Part shown: piece by piece, positions 3,828 to 57,093 of the stretch
Numbering within the stretch: the stretch's first letter is position 1
Layout of the letters: each line of letters starts with the position of its first letter
Assembly: GCA_002897895.1 (NCBI GenBank)
Contig: BDSY01000027.1
Location: forward strand, 4,644 to 68,643
Reading direction: 5' to 3'
Source: a bacterium BMS3Abin06
GTDB taxonomy: Bacteria; Nitrospirota; Thermodesulfovibrionia; UBA6902
Length of the DNA: 64,000 nucleotides
Program-made: the position numbers and the translations under genes
Notes under the pieces: generated by a model
The model's input: only the letters and a program-made list of their open reading frames with translations
Told to the model about the DNA's origin: nothing
Database searches by the model: none

Positions 3828-3980
3828 TTATTCAGGCAGGCACAAAGGCACATAGTGGCAAAGGCACAAAGTGAAAAAAAGAATGAAAAACTTTTCTTGT
3901 ATTCCTGTAACCCTTTGTGCCTATGTGCCTTTGCCACTTTGTGCCTATGTGCCTTTGCCACTTTGTGCCTGAGTAGTTAC
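3828..3980. repeat. MITE-like element of inverted GGCACAAA-type 8-mer arrays flanked by a 12-bp direct repeat
   Basis: Left arm ggcacaaa-ggcacata-gtggcaaa-ggcacaaa (3839-3872). Right arm is the complement, with a 24-bp unit repeated exactly (3913-3936, 3937-3960), ending cctgagtagttac. gaaatttaaaaa at both 3816-3827 and 3981-3992. Confidence 0.8.
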
Positions 3981-12493: not shown

Positions 12494-12560
12494 AATTAAG
12501 AATTATGAATTACGAATGAAGGAAAAATAATTACGAATCAAAGATTCGTAATTCGTAATT
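12494..12560. repeat. AATTACG-type heptamer array with 11-bp hairpin
   Basis: aattaag-aattatg-aattacg-aat; aattacgaatc-aaa-gattcgtaatt-cgtaatt. Confidence 0.75.
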
Positions 12561-29670: not shown

Positions 29671-30393
29671 ATGTATAAGGAGAGGACCATAATTGGAATT
29701 ATTCCCGCGCGCGGAGGCTCCAAAGGGTTGCCGCGAAAAAATGTTCGGGAGATATCCGGTAAGCCTTTGATCGCATGGTCAATAGAACGCGCCCTTTCTT
29801 CCAGGCATCTTGACAGGGTCATTGTGAGTACGGACGATCAGGAAATTGCGGAGACCTCAAAAAAATTCGGCGCTGAAGTTCCGTTTTTAAGACCGCCGGA
29901 AATTGCCGGAGACAAGACCCCGATGATAGATGTAATTATTCATGCTATAGAATTTTATAAAAATATAAACAGGGTTTTTGACTATATCGCGCTATTGGAG
30001 CCCACTTCACCTTTAAGGAAAATCAATGATATTGATTCTGCCATAGAAAAGTTAATCGACCATGAGGCAGAAGCGGACAGCCTTGTGAGCGTTGGAGAAG
30101 TCCAGCTTGAACATCCATCGATTATGAAGGGGATAGACGGAGATTACGTGAAACCATATGAAACGAATGCGCGAATAATAACGAGGAGACAGGAGCTGGA
30201 TAAAGTCTTTTTTCCCTATGGAGTCATCTATCTTTCAAAAACAGAGAAGCTGATTAAACACGGGACATTTTACCATGAGCGGACAATTCCGTATTTCATA
30301 GAGAGATGGCAGAATTATGAAGTAGACGATATATATGACTTTATATGTATAGATGCCGTGATGAAACAGAAGCTAAAGGAGGCCGGTAAATGA
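29671..30393 (+). CDS. neuA: CMP-nonulosonic acid synthetase (NeuA/LegF family)
   Basis: IPARGGSKGLPRKN, VSTDD, EVPFLRP, LEPTSPLR. Confidence 0.92.
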   Translation: MYKERTIIGIIPARGGSKGLPRKNVREISGKPLIAWSIERALSSRHLDRVIVSTDDQEIAETSKKFGAEVPFLRPPEIAGDKTPMIDVIIHAIEFYKNINRVFDYIALLEPTSPLRKINDIDSAIEKLIDHEAEADSLVSVGEVQLEHPSIMKGIDGDYVKPYETNARIITRRQELDKVFFPYGVIYLSKTEKLIKHGTFYHERTIPYFIERWQNYEVDDIYDFICIDAVMKQKLKEAGK

Positions 30394-31418
30394 AAGCAGT
30401 GCAGATAGGTCTGGGTTCCATGGGTAAAAGGAGGATAAGAAACCTTTTATCCGTTGGTATAAATGATATAACGGGTTTTGATAAGAGGGAAGACAGACGC
30501 AGGGAGGCGGAAGACAAATATCAGATAAAGACATCTGCTGAGCTTACCGCTGATCTGTTGTCGGAAAGCGATATCCTTATTGTTTCAACTCCGCCTGACA
30601 GGCACCTTGAGTATCTGAGGCTCGCTGTAGAGCATGGCAAGCCGGCCTTTGTCGAGGCCAGTGTTATCAGGGACGGTCTTGAGGAGGTTTCAGAGCGTGC
30701 AAAGGAAGCAAATGTACTGATCGCACCTTCCTGTACTTTCAGGTTTCACCCCGGTGTAAAGACAATCAAGGATATTGTCCTGAGCGGGAAATACGGCAAG
30801 CTCTGCAATTTTATCTATATCATGGGACAGTATCTTCCTGACTGGCATCCATGGGAGAACATAAAGGATTTTTATGTGAGTAAAAGGGAGACAAGCGCAA
30901 GCAGGGAAATGGTGCCTTTTGAGTTGACATGGCTTCTGGATATAACCGGCCGGCCGGAAGAGGTCTTTGCCTTCTACGGCAGCACCCATAATATGGGCGT
31001 TGATATTGACGATACATATAACGTGAATTTTAAATTTAAAGATTTCCTGGGAACCCTCATTGTTGATGTTGTTTCCCGTTTTGCCACAAGAAGCCTGGTA
31101 ATGAATCTTGAAAAGGCGCAGATAAGATGGAACTGGGAAGAGAGGAGAATCAGACTCTATGAAGCTGAAAATAAAAGCTGGAAACATTTTGATGAACCCG
31201 CGGGCAAGGCAGAGTCAGAGTACAATAAAAATATTATTGAGGAAATGTATGTTGATGAGATGAGCGCCTTTGTTGATTCGGCAAAGGGGATCAAACCATT
31301 TCCAAATACACTTGATGAGGACATCGGAATCCTTACAATCCTTGAAAAGGCAGAACAGACCAATAAGGGCGTGAGCCTGAACGGGGAACTGGGGAACAGA
31401 GAAACGGAGAAGGGGTGA
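30390..31418 (+). CDS. Gfo/Idh/MocA-family oxidoreductase
   Basis: IGLGSMG Rossmann, STPPDRH, YLPDWHPWE. Confidence 0.88.
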   Translation: MKAVQIGLGSMGKRRIRNLLSVGINDITGFDKREDRRREAEDKYQIKTSAELTADLLSESDILIVSTPPDRHLEYLRLAVEHGKPAFVEASVIRDGLEEVSERAKEANVLIAPSCTFRFHPGVKTIKDIVLSGKYGKLCNFIYIMGQYLPDWHPWENIKDFYVSKRETSASREMVPFELTWLLDITGRPEEVFAFYGSTHNMGVDIDDTYNVNFKFKDFLGTLIVDVVSRFATRSLVMNLEKAQIRWNWEERRIRLYEAENKSWKHFDEPAGKAESEYNKNIIEEMYVDEMSAFVDSAKGIKPFPNTLDEDIGILTILEKAEQTNKGVSLNGELGNRETEKG

Positions 31419-31480
31419 AACGGGGACGATCCGGGAGACGGAGACGCGGAGAGACGGGGAGACGGAGAGGCATGGAGAAA
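31380..31480. repeat. GGAGACGG/GGAGAAAC-type degenerate 8-mer array spanning a gene end and spacer
   Basis: gggagacggagacgcggagagacggggagacggagagg. Confidence 0.65.
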
Positions 31481-32852: not shown

Positions 32853-34775
32853 ATGGTTGTAAAGGCAGGTAAAAAGAAGATGAACCGTCATGGCAGGACG
32901 GTTGATTCACCACAAAGTCTTACTGATATACTCGCAGAGGCGATCAGGCTTCACCAGTCCGGGAATCTTGCAGAAGCCGAATCATTGTACCGTCAAATCC
33001 TGCTGAATGACCCTGACCATGCCGATGCATTGCATTTGCTTGGAGTAACAGCTTACCAGAGAGGCAACAACAAACAGGCTGTTGAAAATATAGAAAGGGC
33101 CATAACAATAAATCCTTCTGTATCTTTTTACCACAATAACCTGGGTAATGCATTCATGAGTTTAAATGAAAATGATAAGGCCCTCCAGTGTTTCAAAGAA
33201 GCGCTTCGCTTAAAGCCTGATAATGTTGAAGCATGCAATAACCTGGGGAATACCCTGAGAAAGCAGGGTAAAAATAAAGAAGCCCTCGTTCAATATATAA
33301 AGGCCGTAGAGATGGACCCTGATTATGTTGCTGCCATCAATAATCTTGCCAATCTGTTAAAAGGGGATGAAGCAATTATGCATTACCGCAGGGCCATAAG
33401 ATTGCAGCCTGACCTTGCGGAGGCATACTACAATCTCGGAAATGCATTGAAGGAATCAGATGAAACCGAAGAAGCCGTTGAACAATACCGCAAGGCAATA
33501 TCTATTAATCCCGGTTTTGCGGATGCGTATAATAATCTCGCCAATGTCCTTAAAAGGCAGAAAGAGTATGTTGAAGCTGCAGAGCATTACCATAAGGCGA
33601 TATCGATTAATCCGGATTTTACAGAAGCATACACTAACCTGGGAGATACTTACAGGGAAGAGGGCAGGTTTGATGAAGCCCTCAAAGAGTGCCGGAAAGC
33701 CATAAGCCTGAACCCTGCTTTTGAAGAGGCATATGTTAACCTCGGCAATATATTTCTTGATCGGGGAAATTTCCGGCAAGCTGTAGAGCAATATAACAGA
33801 GCAATTGATCTGAATCCGGATTTAGCTGATGCCCATTACAATAAGGGGCTTGTGCTGCTTTTGAAGGGTGAATTTGAAGAAGGCTGGAAGGAATATGAAT
33901 GGCGTTTTCAGAGCAGGGAGATTTCAAGAGATATTGGTTATACAAATAATGAAATAACTGTCTGGGACGGCTCACCGCTTAACGGTAAAACGATTTTAAT
34001 AATCTCGGAGCAGGGTATGGGCGACCATATTCAGTTTGTCCGTTATATCCCCCTCGTAAAAAAGCTGGGTGGCAGGGTTGTGTTTGAAAGCCGCCGGGAA
34101 CTGATGCGCCTGTTTGAAGGTTATGAGGGCATTGATCTGCTTTTGGAGGAATCTAAGAGCAGTGAATCTGATATTAATCCGGATACCTGTGTTCAGTTAC
34201 TAAGCCTGCCGCGTATATTCGGTGCAACCCTTGATACCATATTTGCCGATGTACCGTACCTGAAGGCCGATCCTGAAACAACAGATAAATGGAAATCACG
34301 TTTTAATCATGAGTTATTCAATGTAGGACTGGTATGGTCAGGCAGTACGGCACACAGGAATGACTGTAACAGGTCGTGTAGTCTTGCGGATTTTGTTCCA
34401 TTGGCGGATATTCCGGGCGTAGCCCTGTTCAGCCTGCAAAAGGGTGGTATAAGTGAAAATGGAGCGGGTATGCGGATTAAAGATATTGGAAAGGACCTTG
34501 ATGATTTTTATGATACGGCAGCGGCAATAGAAAATATGGACCTTGTGATATCAGTAGATACATCCGTTGCCCATCTGGCCGGAGCATTAGGCAGACCGGT
34601 CTGGACTCTGCTCCCTTTTGTTCCGGACTGGCGCTGGATGCTGAAACGTGAAGATACCCCATGGTATCCGACAATGCGTCTCCTGCGTCAAACAGTACCC
34701 GGAGACTGGGCAAGTGTAATGAAACGTGTTGCTGCCGAATTAAAAAACCTGACATTTGAAAGGAGCGCCAAATGA
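32853..34775 (+). CDS. TPR-repeat protein with C-terminal GT-B glycosyltransferase domain
   Basis: Multiple TPRs (AY.NLG..L); EQGMGDHIQFVRY, VDTSVAHLAGALG, DWRW. Confidence 0.85.
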   Translation: MVVKAGKKKMNRHGRTVDSPQSLTDILAEAIRLHQSGNLAEAESLYRQILLNDPDHADALHLLGVTAYQRGNNKQAVENIERAITINPSVSFYHNNLGNAFMSLNENDKALQCFKEALRLKPDNVEACNNLGNTLRKQGKNKEALVQYIKAVEMDPDYVAAINNLANLLKGDEAIMHYRRAIRLQPDLAEAYYNLGNALKESDETEEAVEQYRKAISINPGFADAYNNLANVLKRQKEYVEAAEHYHKAISINPDFTEAYTNLGDTYREEGRFDEALKECRKAISLNPAFEEAYVNLGNIFLDRGNFRQAVEQYNRAIDLNPDLADAHYNKGLVLLLKGEFEEGWKEYEWRFQSREISRDIGYTNNEITVWDGSPLNGKTILIISEQGMGDHIQFVRYIPLVKKLGGRVVFESRRELMRLFEGYEGIDLLLEESKSSESDINPDTCVQLLSLPRIFGATLDTIFADVPYLKADPETTDKWKSRFNHELFNVGLVWSGSTAHRNDCNRSCSLADFVPLADIPGVALFSLQKGGISENGAGMRIKDIGKDLDDFYDTAAAIENMDLVISVDTSVAHLAGALGRPVWTLLPFVPDWRWMLKREDTPWYPTMRLLRQTVPGDWASVMKRVAAELKNLTFERSAK

Positions 34776-37588
34776 GCATTGATAATAAGCATACATTTGA
34801 CTTTGCAGATCTGGATGAATTCATCCGGTTACCCGAGAAGAAAAGGTTTGACAGACAGGATTTTTCCACAAATAATACCTATCAAAAAAATCTTGAGGCC
34901 CTTGGCAAGCATCATCCTGAGTTGGTAGATACTATTGAATCCATATCTGTTGATGAAAGCAGAATTAAGATACTTGATTCTGAAAGCGGCAACCCAAGGA
35001 TTGTTTATGAGAGAGAGGACGGGGAAAAGATTAATATTCATAGCACGGATGATCCGGTTGCATGCGCAAACAGGGCTATTGAGCTGCTTGGTAAAATTGA
35101 AAAAGAGGGGATTGTAGTACTGTTCGGGTTTGGTCTCGGCTATTTCGTTGAGGAACTGTTTAACAGATTTGAAAAGGGACATATCGTTCTTGTATACGAA
35201 GCAACACCTGAAGTCTTTAAGTTCGCTATGCAAGTAAAGGATTTTTCAGTCCTCTTCAGTTCGGAAAAAGTCAAAATAATTCTTGGAGAGAATGCGGACA
35301 ATTTTTCAGTTATTCACAGTCACCATCATCTTATCGTTAACGGAAAGTTCTGGGTTGTAGAGCACAAGCCTTCCGTCAAATTAAATGCGGATGCATATGG
35401 TAATTTCTTCAAAAGATTAAATGAAGAGAAACGTGTCAGTGATACAGGAGTTGCCACTAATATTCAGAGGGGAAAAGAGTTTATTAATGCCTTCTTTTCA
35501 AATCTACATTCAATAGTCAGGAAGCCGGGTGTTAATGGTTTGAAAGATGTTTTTAAGGGTTGTACGGCAATAGTTGTATCAGCAGGGCCGTCCCTGGATA
35601 AAAACGTGCATTTATTGAGAAAAGCAAAAGGGAAGGCCGTTATAATTGCCACCGGAGGCGCGCTTCCGACACTCCTTTCTTCTGATATTGTTCCTGATTT
35701 GCTGGTGGAAATAGATCCTGTAAGTGACAATATAGAAGATAAATTTCAGGGGATTCCTGCACTGATGAATGTTCCGTTCATCTGTCTTGCTCAGTATACA
35801 CCTGAACTCGTCAATATATATCCCGGGCCAATGTTTATAAACAGTGTAAGCGGGAATATCGCATTTGAATGGCTAAAAGGTTTTTGGGATGAAAAGGGCT
35901 TGATTGAGTGCTTCGGCGGCTCTGTTGCCCACCTTGCATTTGCAGCCGCTGAATTTATAGGTGCAGATGTTATCGGCTTTGTCGGCCAGGACCTTTCATA
36001 TAAAGACGATAGACTGCATACCATAGGCTATTCGGATAATATGGACAGACTGTTGGAAGAAGGAGTAAAAAAGAAACAGGATAATATAATTGGAGGAGTG
36101 CATGTACGTGATATCTTCGATGAAGAAGTCCTTGCGATTAGGCAGTTCCTGGTTTTCAAAAGTTCATTTGAGAACAGGATCAAGGGAACAAATAGAGTTG
36201 TTATAAACGCGACTGAATTCGGACTCCCGATAGATGGTGCAACAAATTTGAGGCTGGTGGACTTTATGGATGAATACTGCGATGGTCAAAAAGAAATAGA
36301 TACATTTTCAGTCTTGTCAGGTTTGTTAAACAGCAACACAGACTGCAGACTTGATGATCTTATAGAAGAAGTATCAGCGGCAAGGAAGAAATTTGCAAGT
36401 ATTAAGAAGACCTCCAGCCAGATATTGAAATATACAAAAAGAGTAAAGAAACTTAAAGGAAGTGAAAATAAAGACTCTCAAGAACTTCATAATATACTTA
36501 AAAAAGTCGGACTACTTATAGAAAAAGTCAAACATCCCTTGCTTAATCTATTAATGGGATATAACTACGGACTGGAACTTTATCTGAAAAAGCAGGAAAT
36601 TCAGGACATAGATGAGATAGAAGATAAATGGGAAATGCTTGATAAACAGCTTGAAAGAGGACAGATATATTACGATGAAATTGTAGGGGCAATACGTTTA
36701 TTTAATAAGCAACTGGATAAAGCAATTACTGCACTTCAGAGGGAAAAGAGGGTGGATTCAATCCTTAATGATGGAAGTATTGAAGAAACGGAGAAATTCT
36801 ACAGGGCAGCTATAATTTATAAAAGGGCAGGTATGGCAACACAGGCAGTAAGGTATTTGGAGAAAGTAGTCAGTAGTCAGGAGTCAGAAGTCAGAAGTCA
36901 GAAAGCCTTGATCCCGCTTGCTGAGATGTATATAAAGCAATTCAGGTTCTATGAAGCAAAAGAAATATTAACAGAAGTCAGAAGTCAGAAGTCACGCATT
37001 ACGGAATTACGTGAGGTTTGCAATAAAAAAATAAGGGAATGGGAAGAAAGAAAGCTAAAGATGAATAAAATGCTTAAAGAGGCTGAAGCAAACTATGGCT
37101 CCCATCTTGAGTCGGGATATTTTTACTTCAGGATAAAGAATTTTGAAATGGCGGAAAAGGCATATTTAAAGGCAGTAAGTAATGAAGAGGCAGGAGGCAG
37201 GGAGCAGGGGGCAGGGGTAGCTGCTTGCTATGGCCTTGCACATACATACCTTGCCATGGACGATCCTGAGAAGGCTGTCGATGCCTTTGAGAAAGCGATA
37301 GAAAGGGAACCGGATAATCCAGTATTATATCGCGATCTGGGTTTTTTGGCCTTCCAGAACAATAATGTTTCATCTGCCGAGATTTTTTTTGCCAGGGCAA
37401 TAGAACTGGCGCCTGACGCAGCCGAGCTGTATAAACCTTTAGCTGATCTTTATATGGGCATCGGAGAGAGAGAAAAGGCGGTTGCCCTTTATGAGAATGC
37501 ACTGCAGGCCAACCCGGCTAATCCGGTTATTCAGCAAGACCTCGCAGTGCTTTTTAAAGAGACTATTGCAGAAACAGAGGGATGCTAA
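34772..37588 (+). CDS. Motility-associated factor (Maf/DUF115) flagellin glycosyltransferase with C-terminal TPRs
   Basis: LFGFGLGY, VVSAGPSLDKN, GGSVAH, FVGQDLSY; directly upstream of flagellin. Confidence 0.85.
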   Translation: MSIDNKHTFDFADLDEFIRLPEKKRFDRQDFSTNNTYQKNLEALGKHHPELVDTIESISVDESRIKILDSESGNPRIVYEREDGEKINIHSTDDPVACANRAIELLGKIEKEGIVVLFGFGLGYFVEELFNRFEKGHIVLVYEATPEVFKFAMQVKDFSVLFSSEKVKIILGENADNFSVIHSHHHLIVNGKFWVVEHKPSVKLNADAYGNFFKRLNEEKRVSDTGVATNIQRGKEFINAFFSNLHSIVRKPGVNGLKDVFKGCTAIVVSAGPSLDKNVHLLRKAKGKAVIIATGGALPTLLSSDIVPDLLVEIDPVSDNIEDKFQGIPALMNVPFICLAQYTPELVNIYPGPMFINSVSGNIAFEWLKGFWDEKGLIECFGGSVAHLAFAAAEFIGADVIGFVGQDLSYKDDRLHTIGYSDNMDRLLEEGVKKKQDNIIGGVHVRDIFDEEVLAIRQFLVFKSSFENRIKGTNRVVINATEFGLPIDGATNLRLVDFMDEYCDGQKEIDTFSVLSGLLNSNTDCRLDDLIEEVSAARKKFASIKKTSSQILKYTKRVKKLKGSENKDSQELHNILKKVGLLIEKVKHPLLNLLMGYNYGLELYLKKQEIQDIDEIEDKWEMLDKQLERGQIYYDEIVGAIRLFNKQLDKAITALQREKRVDSILNDGSIEETEKFYRAAIIYKRAGMATQAVRYLEKVVSSQESEVRSQKALIPLAEMYIKQFRFYEAKEILTEVRSQKSRITELREVCNKKIREWEERKLKMNKMLKEAEANYGSHLESGYFYFRIKNFEMAEKAYLKAVSNEEAGGREQGAGVAACYGLAHTYLAMDDPEKAVDAFEKAIEREPDNPVLYRDLGFLAFQNNNVSSAEIFFARAIELAPDAAELYKPLADLYMGIGEREKAVALYENALQANPANPVIQQDLAVLFKETIAETEGC
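36868..37220. repeat. Three in-frame heptamer arrays inside the maf TPR region
   Basis: AGTCAG(T/G/A) x5 at 36868-36902; CAGAAGT x3 plus TTACG-type units at 36972-37011; GG(A/G)G(G)CA-type units at about 37172-37220. Confidence 0.75.
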
Positions 37589-37978: not shown

Positions 37979-39850
37979 ATGAGTTTAGTTGTTAACACTA
38001 ATATGGCCTCTCTCAACTCGCAGAGACAGTTGGGGAGAACCAGCAGCAAGCTGTCCAAATCTATCGAGAGACTCTCTTCAGGTCTGAGAATTAACTCGGC
38101 GTCAGATGACGCTGCGGGTATGGCGATTGCTTCAAAAATGGGCGCTCAGGTCAGGGGTCTCAATCAGGCAGTAAGAAACGCGAACAATGCAATTACTCTT
38201 ACGCAGACCGCTGAAGGTGGATTAGACACGGTTACGAACATGCTTCAAAGGTTGAGGGAGCTTGCGGTACAGTCATCTTCAGATGACAATACCTCTTCCG
38301 ACCGCACAACCCTGGTAAGTGAGGCTGACAACCTCATTTCAGAGATGACAAGGCTGGTTAACACAACAGAGTATAACACCATGGGGCTTCTGGATGGGTC
38401 ATTCAGCAGTAAATATTTCCAGGTCGGCGCTAACTACGGACAGAAAGTTACATTTACTATAAGCGATTCCCGTGGTAAATCCATTGGTGGCAGAGCACAG
38501 TATGATGCTGATATTGCTGACGGTGTATTAAACGCTGAAAATGGTAATTTCGGTTCCAGCGAATTGAAAATTAACGGTTACGGCGTTAAAGCCACGAGTT
38601 CTTCTGATGACCAGTATTCTGTAATGGAAGTAATGTCAACCAGTTTATCGAATTATGCAACGGATGGAGCATTGTCTAATGTTTCCGGTACTTACACAAT
38701 GATGATAAACAACACTACTGTAAATCTTATTACGATTGCCAGTGGTACAGCTCTTACGGCAGCATCCATAGTAGACACGATTGTCAGCGCCATTAACGCG
38801 GCCTCAATAACCAATGTTTCCGCTTTCACAGTAGGCAGCACATGGGGAATAAGGGCTACTAACGGTGCAGACCTTGAGTTGACAACATCCAATGTTGCAA
38901 CCGGTGGCGCAGCATCAACTGCTGCTCTTGCTTTAACTACACTTGGAATGAACGCTGTAGCCTCAATGTTCGGTTCCGTTGTTGCTTCCGGAAGTGACAT
39001 ACTGAATGCTAACGGACAATCCAGCGCCATTGCAAAAGCTGCTGCTATAAATGAGATTAAAGCTAGTTCCGGTGTTACAGCGAATGCACAGGCAAACACT
39101 ATTACCGGGACTGCTGCTATTTCAGCAGGCTCTATCACCTCAGGCTCTGTTTATATCAATGGAGTGAATCTGGGAGCTGTAACAGTAACTGCAAGTGATG
39201 GGACGGGCGCGCTTGTAAGCGCTATCAATGATATAACATCCTCGACGGGTGTTACAGCTACCACGGATGGAGATAATAAGCTCGTTCTCACGGCAGCTGA
39301 CGGCAGAAACATTTCACTAACTGTTTCAGACACAGAGGAAACAGGTATCCTTGAACTCGGAGAAACTGCTCAGTGGACTAATAATACTGCTGTCTTCAGG
39401 TCTGCTGTAAGGTTAACGAGCGAAAGTGATATTGCATTGACCGGAACTCTCGAGGATCTTTATGAGTCTTCTTCTTCTGCTCCTGCCACTAACACAACTG
39501 ATACCAGTAAAACTGTTGCTACGGACGGAACAACATATAATGTTGCTGCAGTAGCAGTAGACACCCAGGCCAATGCAGAGGCGGCAATCCTCACTATTGA
39601 CGCAGCGCTTAACGATATTAACGGCATCAGGGCTGAGATCGGCGCTGTGCAGAACAGGCTTGAGTTTACAGTGGCCAACCTGGAGATCTCATCCGAAAAC
39701 ATGAGCGCGGCTAAAAGCCAGATCATGGATGCTGACTTTGCTTCTGAGACAGCGATATTCACAAGGAACCAGATAATGGTGCAGGCGGCTACCGCTATAC
39801 TGGCACAGGCCAATACACTGCCGCAGTTAGCACTGCAACTGCTTGGATAG
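37979..39850 (+). CDS. fliC: Flagellin
   Basis: VNTNMASLNSQRQL, LSSGLRINSASDDAAG, QVGAN, GAVQNRLE, S.IMDADFA, AQANTLPQLALQLLG. Confidence 0.98.
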   Translation: MSLVVNTNMASLNSQRQLGRTSSKLSKSIERLSSGLRINSASDDAAGMAIASKMGAQVRGLNQAVRNANNAITLTQTAEGGLDTVTNMLQRLRELAVQSSSDDNTSSDRTTLVSEADNLISEMTRLVNTTEYNTMGLLDGSFSSKYFQVGANYGQKVTFTISDSRGKSIGGRAQYDADIADGVLNAENGNFGSSELKINGYGVKATSSSDDQYSVMEVMSTSLSNYATDGALSNVSGTYTMMINNTTVNLITIASGTALTAASIVDTIVSAINAASITNVSAFTVGSTWGIRATNGADLELTTSNVATGGAASTAALALTTLGMNAVASMFGSVVASGSDILNANGQSSAIAKAAAINEIKASSGVTANAQANTITGTAAISAGSITSGSVYINGVNLGAVTVTASDGTGALVSAINDITSSTGVTATTDGDNKLVLTAADGRNISLTVSDTEETGILELGETAQWTNNTAVFRSAVRLTSESDIALTGTLEDLYESSSSAPATNTTDTSKTVATDGTTYNVAAVAVDTQANAEAAILTIDAALNDINGIRAEIGAVQNRLEFTVANLEISSENMSAAKSQIMDADFASETAIFTRNQIMVQAATAILAQANTLPQLALQLLG

Positions 39851-43866: not shown

Positions 43867-43905
43867 ACTCAGGGGCAAAGTAGCAGAGGCACAAAGGCAC
43901 AAAGT
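43867..43905. repeat. GGCACAAA-type half element
   Basis: actcaggggcaaagtagcagaggcacaaaggcacaaagt. Confidence 0.65.
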
Positions 43906-48110: not shown

Positions 48111-48150
48111 AAGGCAGGCACAAAGGGGCAAAGGCACAGAGGCACAAAGT
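48111..48150. repeat. GGCACAAA-type half element between valS and nadC
   Basis: aaggcaggcacaaaggggcaaaggcacagaggcacaaagt. Confidence 0.65.
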
Positions 48151-57066: not shown

Positions 57067-57093
57067 AAATCCGAACTCCTGACTCTAAACGCA

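Follow-up and report, generated by a model that had tools for sequence, protein, structure and literature searches.

The window studied here is a 64,000-nucleotide stretch of DNA from the bacterium BMS3Abin06 (GenBank assembly GCA_002897895.1, contig BDSY01000027.1, positions 4,644 to 68,643), a metagenome-assembled genome (MAG) of the Thermodesulfovibrionia type in the Nitrospirota. It carries a gene for a predicted Maf-type flagellin glycosyltransferase, and the part of the gene that codes for the C-terminal TPR tail contains three short tandem arrays with a unit of seven nucleotides. These arrays are very probably translated copies of heptanucleotide repeats (KCAGRRG) that occur throughout the lineage and that have come to lie in permissive turns of the TPR tail, where their peptides would serve as neutral or nearly neutral spacers and not as a switch.

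Period-7 arrays in the window were called with Tandem Repeats Finder (TRF), which finds three of them inside the Maf open reading frame (ORF), all on the forward strand. Array 1 (36868..36903) consists of AGTCAGT, AGTCAGG, three AGTCAGA units and a closing A, amounting to 5.1 copies of AGTCAGA (TRF score 58), and it encodes the peptide VVSSQESEVRSQK (amino acids 699-711). Array 2 (36972..36994) is a perfect run of 3.3 CAGAAGT units (score 46) that encodes TEVRSQKS (amino acids 734-741). Its 23 nucleotides are the longest perfect tract in the Maf arrays, whose perfect tracts span 2-3.3 units. Array 3 (37189..37217) reads GGCAGGA, GGCAGGG, AGCAGGG, GGCAGGG and a final G, which corresponds to 4.1 copies of GGCAGGG (score 44), and the encoded peptide is EAGGREQGAGV (amino acids 806-816). 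With 5.1, 3.3 and 4.1 head-to-tail copies of a 7-nucleotide unit, all three have the three or more copies that define a long simple sequence repeat (LSSR).

An earlier note on this DNA had described three independent heptamer arrays that are tolerated in frame within TPR loops. The number of arrays and the open frame were right, but the arrays do not represent independent unit types because all of their units are variants of the single type KCAGRRG. This type belongs to a superfamily of lineage-wide heptanucleotide tandem repeats that share a CAG core. One of the runs named in the note, described as a TTACG-type heptamer run, proved to be something else. The DNA at this place holds only two ATTACG hexamers on the forward strand (36998..37003 and 37006..37011) with a spacing of 8 nucleotides, and TRF makes no call there. 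The hexamers encode the conserved RITEL(L/R) start of a helix, which orthologues carry with no repeat in their DNA, as does the Maf gene of the hydrothermal-vent isolate HyVt-268, a congener of the source genome.

An AlphaFold2 (AF2) model of Maf, built from 30 orthologues (pLDDT 84.6, pTM 0.82), places the arrays at junctions between helices. Array 1 falls where helix 689-702 gives way to helix 706-722, and it encodes the end of the first helix, the turn and the start of the second. Array 2 forms the turn that joins helix 726-735 to the long helix 740-774. Array 3 lies between helices 791-804 and 812-828, covering the loop at 805-811 and the first turn of the helix that follows. These junctions are the three lowest-confidence spots of the TPR tail. 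The pLDDT of ten-residue blocks is 62 (residues 701-710), 80 and 60 at the three arrays compared to about 90 nearby, and residues 806-811 are below 50. The earlier placement of the arrays between helices was therefore correct, though each array also reaches into the flanking helices, of which it encodes the last or first turn. As modelled, the arrays occupy three permissive helix-turn-helix junctions and are translated as polar turns.

Comparisons with related genes were based on an alignment of 30 Maf orthologues and on the DNA of 38 distinct alleles, wherein a loop was counted as array-bearing if its period-7 self-match (lag 7) was at least 0.5. The named relatives are Nitrospirae, Nitrospirota or Thermodesulfovibrionia MAGs. 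The three closest metagenome loci (L116, L039 and L110, with 70-74% identity) stop short of the TPR tail and were thus uninformative for the loops. Among the 30 orthologues, the three junctions stand out as hypervariable spots in an otherwise well-conserved Maf tail. Heptamer periodicity is present at these same loops in 13 alleles from several genera, which together carry 23 arrays of up to 13 units (94 nucleotides). Maf orthologues with 45% identity or less lack heptamer periodicity, and their loops are non-periodic with a similar base length.

Site by site, the loops differ in the number of units that they carry. Site 1 has five units in the window and two in the congener, such that the loop in the window is longer by seven amino acids, or exactly 21 nucleotides. 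At site 2 the difference is reversed, with three units in the window versus six in the congener (21 additional nucleotides), which makes the loop in the window seven amino acids shorter. Alleles L018 and L015 are longer than the window at this site by 42 and 84 nucleotides. Site 3 is of the same length as in the congener, which is the usual loop length, and loops of equal length composed of TCAGGAG/GCAGGGG units are present at the orthologous position in alleles L008, L015, L018, L099 and L022. Thus, the earlier proposal that repeats are adding coding sequence is correct for site 1 only. Alignment with orthologues, which had been suggested as a means to confirm insertions, reveals arrays of varying length at shared loops, but a simple insertion model fails. 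In the orthologue comparison, no case was found where the same array peptides are encoded without repeats.

In the four closest alleles, the loop at site 1 measures 18, 11, 11 and 18 amino acids, that at site 2 measures 16, 23, 30 and 44, and that at site 3 measures 19, 19, 26 and 19. Every difference among them is a multiple of seven amino acids, corresponding to three units or 21 nucleotides. The lengths imply at least five independent insertions or deletions, and the probability that all would be multiples of seven amino acids by chance is roughly (1/7)^5. Moreover, alleles of equal length can carry different units at one site, as with AGTCAGA in the window and GCAGGGG in L015. Since the unit differs at equal length, the Maf loops are being rewritten within one unit family and not only lengthened. 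The same behavior is seen with chorismate synthase (AroC), at three loops across 22 related genomes.

Alleles L015 and L018 are paralogues of 978 and 912 amino acids that reside together in a single MAG (assembly GCA_054018075.1). Their tails are 66-68% identical to that of the Maf protein in the window, and they carry arrays in the same loops with unit numbers that differ.

A census of the source genome (2.98 Mb, 43% G+C) demonstrates that such arrays are not special to Maf. TRF finds 359 period-7 arrays in the genome versus 83 in a size-matched genome simulated with a third-order Markov model, and at scores of at least 40 the numbers are 140 and 0. An array of at least 2.8 copies was classed as coding when it was located inside a crude ORF, more than 150 nucleotides from its start and more than 30 nucleotides from its stop. 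By this definition, 64 of 244 arrays are well inside ORFs, and the unit families of Maf are found in about 50 other ORFs as well. The array-bearing ORFs include PurL (four arrays), a BcrAD-type activator (three), and AroC, MnmA, PrmC, CobB and CbiE/T (two each). Another 135 arrays are not fully inside ORFs, and simple arithmetic from the census puts the density of arrays in coding DNA about sevenfold below that in non-coding DNA. The Maf units belong to dispersed families, among them AAGTCAG (8 arrays), AGGGGGC (8 arrays) and AATTACG (17 arrays). The census accordingly bears out the earlier view of the arrays as DNA-level micro-repeats, dispersed between genes by family and tolerated in frame in protein loops.

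Coding arrays are also biased in what they encode. In 62 of the 64 coding arrays, the unit as read on the sense strand has no stop codon in any of the three phases. Both orientations are stop-free in 31 cases, and 27 of these arrays take the one that encodes the more hydrophilic peptide (binomial p=3e-5). Most of the residues encoded are S, R, Q, T, E, G and N. Copy numbers cluster tightly, with 86 arrays of three to four copies (3.x), 118 of four to five (4.x) and 22 of five to six (5.x). The mode of 4-4.7 units is shared by G-rich and G-poor units alike, and we have therefore set aside G-quadruplex formation as the cause of the four-unit mode. A CAG or CTG triplet is present in 53% of the units compared to 22% of random genomic heptamers.

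Among the housekeeping genes, PurL (C80:3669-7688), AroC (C88:26588-27844), MnmA (C23:15727-16863) and PrmC (C53:19390-20322) carry two to four in-frame heptamer arrays each (contig names are those used for the source genome). Array peptides of these enzymes include NTEHRTQ, NSELRTQ, TTDHRPQ and QRSTVNG, and relatives of AroC have arrays at the same three loops. A scan for genes that are split by an array frameshift yielded six junctions. Two of these are arrays that bracket a four-helix-bundle gene on contig C92, and the others look like adjacent genes.

These observations are best explained by a model in which the arrays arise and turn over at the DNA level, through replication slippage or unit conversion in a 7-nucleotide register. 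Selection would then retain only those variants that preserve the frame, are stop-free in all three phases and encode polar peptides (rich in S, R, Q, T, E, G and N) in surface turns. The resulting Maf peptides would be neutral or nearly neutral spacers. However, several points weigh against this model. Slippage alone explains neither the peak at 4-4.7 units nor the excess of CAG/CTG. That the peptides are neutral for Maf function is something that we infer, and a use for the arrays could equally account for their being kept at precisely these loops in different genera. Furthermore, our comparison of strains and samples relies on consensus assemblies, in which minority repeat-length variants within populations would be invisible.

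A different possibility, which we consider rather doubtful, is that the arrays are cis-acting sites that bind a repeat-specific partner as DNA or mRNA. The coding copies would then be functional or selfish elements that happen to be translatable. Candidate partners are the four-helix-bundle proteins of the PF05635 family, and a link between arrays and four-helix-bundle genes that the earlier note had mentioned holds in this genome. Nine of its 10 PF05635 genes have a period-7 or period-8 array within 300 nucleotides, compared to a background of 0.157 for windows of that size. Most of these arrays begin 9-35 nucleotides away from the gene, with opposite orientations on its two flanks, and the unit is particular to each gene. 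Examples of bracketed genes, which are 23S-IVS/Avd-like and are located in the source genome (G000) outside of the window, are found at C60:223-537, C92:2514-2828, C91:70772-71077 and C71:23373-23690. In 27 related genomes, 26 of 30 PF05635 loci (L200-L229) have a flanking array with a period of 6-9, and 18 of the 30 have arrays on both sides, in most cases inverted, each locus again with its own unit.

The repeat families themselves offer some additional support for such a partnership. Of the six heptamer families with the most arrays, five are represented beside a PF05635 gene or remnant, and the Maf units are one base removed from two PF05635-flanking families. The family link is no more than suggestive, because its significance by our estimate under an abundance-weighted null is weak (p about 0.03-0.07). 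A published precedent is the intervening sequence (IVS) in Coxiella 23S rRNA, where tandem heptamers precede the S23p gene (PMC4990558). Several other findings do not favor a cis-acting role. Some relatives that have no PF05635 match still carry array-like AroC loops. The Maf arrays are direct, and RNA folding of the region is no better than for shuffled sequence (z=+1.7). In addition, we know of no binding function or other activity for PF05635 proteins.

A more speculative version of this idea, to which we likewise give only a small chance, is that the arrays, with the translated ones in Maf, AroC, PurL and other proteins among them, may be dispersed sites of an active repeat system and not passive products of slippage. 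Each PF05635 (Avd/S23p-like) paralogue, bracketed by inverted arrays of its own unit, might recognize arrays of about four units and help to write or maintain them. If true, such a system would explain why the size mode is fixed, why the units have a CAG core in common and why the same protein loops are rewritten again and again.

Less probable by a wide step is adaptation at the level of the peptide, where polar seven-residue repeats would be selected for an effect on the protein, such as a change in how tightly the TPR superhelix is wound or how flexible it is, or the creation of contact sites, with DNA periodicity as merely the cheapest means to this end. The persistence of arrays at the same three junctions across genera and the strong bias toward hydrophilic peptides agree with this explanation. 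A step of seven amino acids also approximates two helical turns, and in the model each array in part extends a helix. However, the same units are abundant outside genes, as evident from the 135 arrays mentioned above, and are also found in unrelated proteins. Units, and hence peptides, differ freely between equal-length alleles. Because the units are so freely replaced and are so abundant outside genes, a peptide-level function is hard to reconcile with the data. Moreover, distant orthologues have non-repeat loops, and model confidence is lowest exactly at the arrays.

The earlier note had raised the prospect that slippage by one unit causes phase variation of Maf. According to this view, the arrays would be slipped-strand switches at a contingency locus, and gain or loss of a unit would remove the TPR tail to make flagellin glycosylation phase-variable. 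We consider this the least likely of the explanations for which a positive case can be made. The mechanical part of the proposal is sound, since a change of one unit in either direction at any of the three sites leads to a stop codon within 5-30 codons and costs the protein its last 100-240 residues. Unit numbers have also changed during Maf evolution. Coding heptanucleotide repeats are known to drive phase variation of neuO (PMC13001214), and maf genes of C. jejuni are reported to be phase-variable (PMC13130089).

What is found at the Maf locus argues against a switch. In the 13 alleles, the reading frame stays intact between the catalytic domain and the C-terminus across all 23 arrays, none of which is out of frame. 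For neuO, in contrast, 65.6% of genomes have an out-of-frame gene and tracts of 3 to 53 units are known, whereas perfect tracts in Maf comprise only 2-3.3 units. Thus, the long perfect tracts and frame-breaking alleles that mark a contingency locus are both absent. The exact Maf protein is present on 11 contigs, and a variant that is 99% identical has identical array peptides. The DNA over the Maf arrays is 100% identical between contigs from four samples, both for contigs found through Maf and for those retrieved via two neighboring proteins. The latter route avoids the identity bias of a search with Maf itself. Finally, the same arrays are present in single-copy enzymes that are essential, so that an off state would be harmful. 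In Campylobacter, the switches of maf genes are homopolymeric tracts.

One contig (locus L236, a Logan contig of DRR093004) ends 27 nucleotides past Maf array 1. As its sequence is identical to the window until this point, the end is probably a break in the assembly graph and not a variant.

A role for the Maf array region as an RNA hairpin or other RNA structure was rejected as unlikely, because of the folding result given above and because the arrays are all direct with none inverted, so that the inverted stem pair of a hairpin module is missing. The window region also contains no PF05635 gene.

Much of the general phenomenon is already in print: bacteria are known to have heptanucleotide repeats in excess, arrays with some four units have been described, and copies occasionally lie within genes. 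Passages in PMC4679880 and PMC4692102 attribute to Mrazek et al. (2007) the finding that heptanucleotide LSSRs are over-represented genome-wide in prokaryotes, form short arrays and might originate by slippage, and that coding regions seldom contain units with a length indivisible by three, a point on which the survey laid stress. The source genome resembles this description in its genome-wide excess of 7-nucleotide units, its short arrays and the presence of units outside genes. It departs from the survey in that about a quarter of the arrays (64 of 244) are inside ORFs, at loop sites that are conserved across genera. In Geobacter metallireducens, the Gmet_H4 element has four tandem GGACCGG heptanucleotides, and a second class has five MTYCTGA units (PMC2700814). 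Those arrays are likewise of about four units, and the MTYCTGA class resembles ATTCTGA/ACTCAGA units found here. However, they were read as regulatory RNA elements or as binding sites for regulators, with no analysis of frame, loop position or orthologous sites.

G-rich GGGAATC/GGGGAYT repeats are known from Xanthomonas and Nostoc, where 32% of the Nostoc copies are intragenic and the preference for four units has been ascribed to G-quadruplex formation (PMC4692102). Unlike those repeats, G-poor units share the four-unit mode here, and the host belongs to the Nitrospirota. For the same reason, the comparison made in the earlier note with the short tandemly repeated repetitive (STRR) sequences of cyanobacteria serves as an analogy only.

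The closest parallel within coding sequence is neuO of E. coli K1. This gene carries a heptanucleotide variable number tandem repeat (VNTR), termed poly-psi, with 3-53 perfect units, and heterogeneity within cultures has been measured. Full-length protein is made only when the number of units is divisible by three, and three units encode a seven-residue repeat (PMC13001214). The Maf arrays share the 7-nucleotide repeat in coding sequence and the equivalence of three units with seven residues. They differ from neuO in that they have three to five imperfect units, are always in frame and are invariant.

In marine Beggiatoaceae, TAACTGA forms dispersed direct arrays of two to six copies, many of which are located just upstream of start codons. 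Reverse copies are translated (LSVISYQ) at the peripheries of proteins, and forward copies contain stops in all frames (PMC4679880). Dispersed heptamer arrays, some of them translated, are thus common to both systems. However, the Beggiatoaceae repeat involves one unit only, and its coding copies are few and mostly terminal. A likeness in position is also apparent in the source genome, where 36 arrays lie within 150 nucleotides of a crude ORF start, and for 100 arrays outside ORFs the median distance from the array end to the next ORF start is 27 nucleotides. This suggests that many arrays are located in 5' leaders, as are the TAACTGA repeats.

The Coxiella IVS is the nearest printed precedent for the bracketed PF05635 genes. 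In that system, tandem GACAGAT heptamers precede the S23p gene and their copy number varies between strains (PMC4990558), which gives the same association of a PF05635-family gene with tandem heptamers. The Maf arrays have no such gene and no hairpin, and therefore this precedent bears on the flanking arrays only. Our literature searches on heptamer repeats in Nitrospirae or Thermodesulfovibrio, and on four-helix-bundle genes with heptamers, returned nothing specific. Overall, the Maf locus joins a known kind of repeat, and it is well resolved with regard to loop position, quantization in steps of seven residues and conservation of sites across genera.

Together, the data indicate that non-triplet repeat DNA can live inside conserved genes when it is confined to surface turns, to stop-free hydrophilic orientations and to steps of three units (seven residues). 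For annotation and studies of protein evolution, this means that hypervariable polar loops in proteins of Nitrospirota are to be read as repeat DNA and not as lineage-specific motifs. For flagellar biology, a tempting but unsupported claim of Maf phase variation is removed. The order-wide arrays in housekeeping enzymes, the size mode near four units and the association with genes for four-helix-bundle proteins provide a testable lead on the unexplained excess of heptanucleotide repeats in bacteria.

The Maf gene (34772..37588, forward strand) is an open ORF of 938 amino acids. Pfam matches reveal a Maf N-domain, an MptE-like/DUF115 catalytic domain at amino acids 240-412 and a C-terminal TPR superhelix at about 670-937. 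The ORF matches PF01973 (E=1e-37, 129.8 bits versus a cut-off of 34.6) and PF20157 (E=2e-8, 34.7 bits versus 23.5), in addition to TPR families. A sequence search of the PDB was dominated by TPR matches and so a fold search was used instead. The top solved structure returned by Foldseek for the AF2 model is 5MU5, the Maf protein of Magnetospirillum (E=5e-14, TM(target) 0.51). Genes upstream of Maf encode a UDP-GlcNAc 2-epimerase, a CBS-nucleotidyltransferase, a cytidylyltransferase, an oxidoreductase and an aminotransferase, which are typical for nonulosonic-acid synthesis, and also a TPR protein. Genes for flagellin, FlaG, FliD and FliS are located downstream. The flagellin (37979..39850, forward strand; 623 amino acids, with Flagellin_N, Flagellin_IN and Flagellin_C domains in Pfam) is the presumed substrate of Maf. 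Since the domains, the 5MU5-like fold and the neighboring nonulosonic-acid and flagellin genes agree, assignment of the product to the Maf flagellin glycosyltransferases stands, and this enzyme is predicted to transfer nonulosonic acid to Ser/Thr residues of flagellin.

The neighborhood of Maf also includes a cluster of G/A-rich arrays with periods of 8, 10 and 16 (31379-31478 in the window; GAACGGG and GAGACGGAGACACGGA). The cluster spans the 3' end of the oxidoreductase ORF (30390-31418) and the gap ahead of the aminotransferase gene.

Two intergenic places in the window had been reported in the earlier note to carry the same units as Maf. The first is a genuine inverted pair of the AATTACG family by TRF (12494..12521 forward and 12544..12560 reverse complement), located just upstream of an AGGAGG ribosome-binding site. 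This family brackets the four-helix-bundle gene at C92:2514-2828. The second (57072-57086) is a minus-strand GAGTCAG fragment of only about 1.7 copies.

Octamer arrays of AGGCACAA are located in the window at 3838-3871, 3912-3970, 43887-43904 and 48116-48149. Those at 3838-3970 form an inverted pair around an AT-rich loop of 40 nucleotides with no gene inside. With 64 arrays, AGGCACAA is the most abundant array family of the genome, and it brackets the four-helix-bundle gene on C60.

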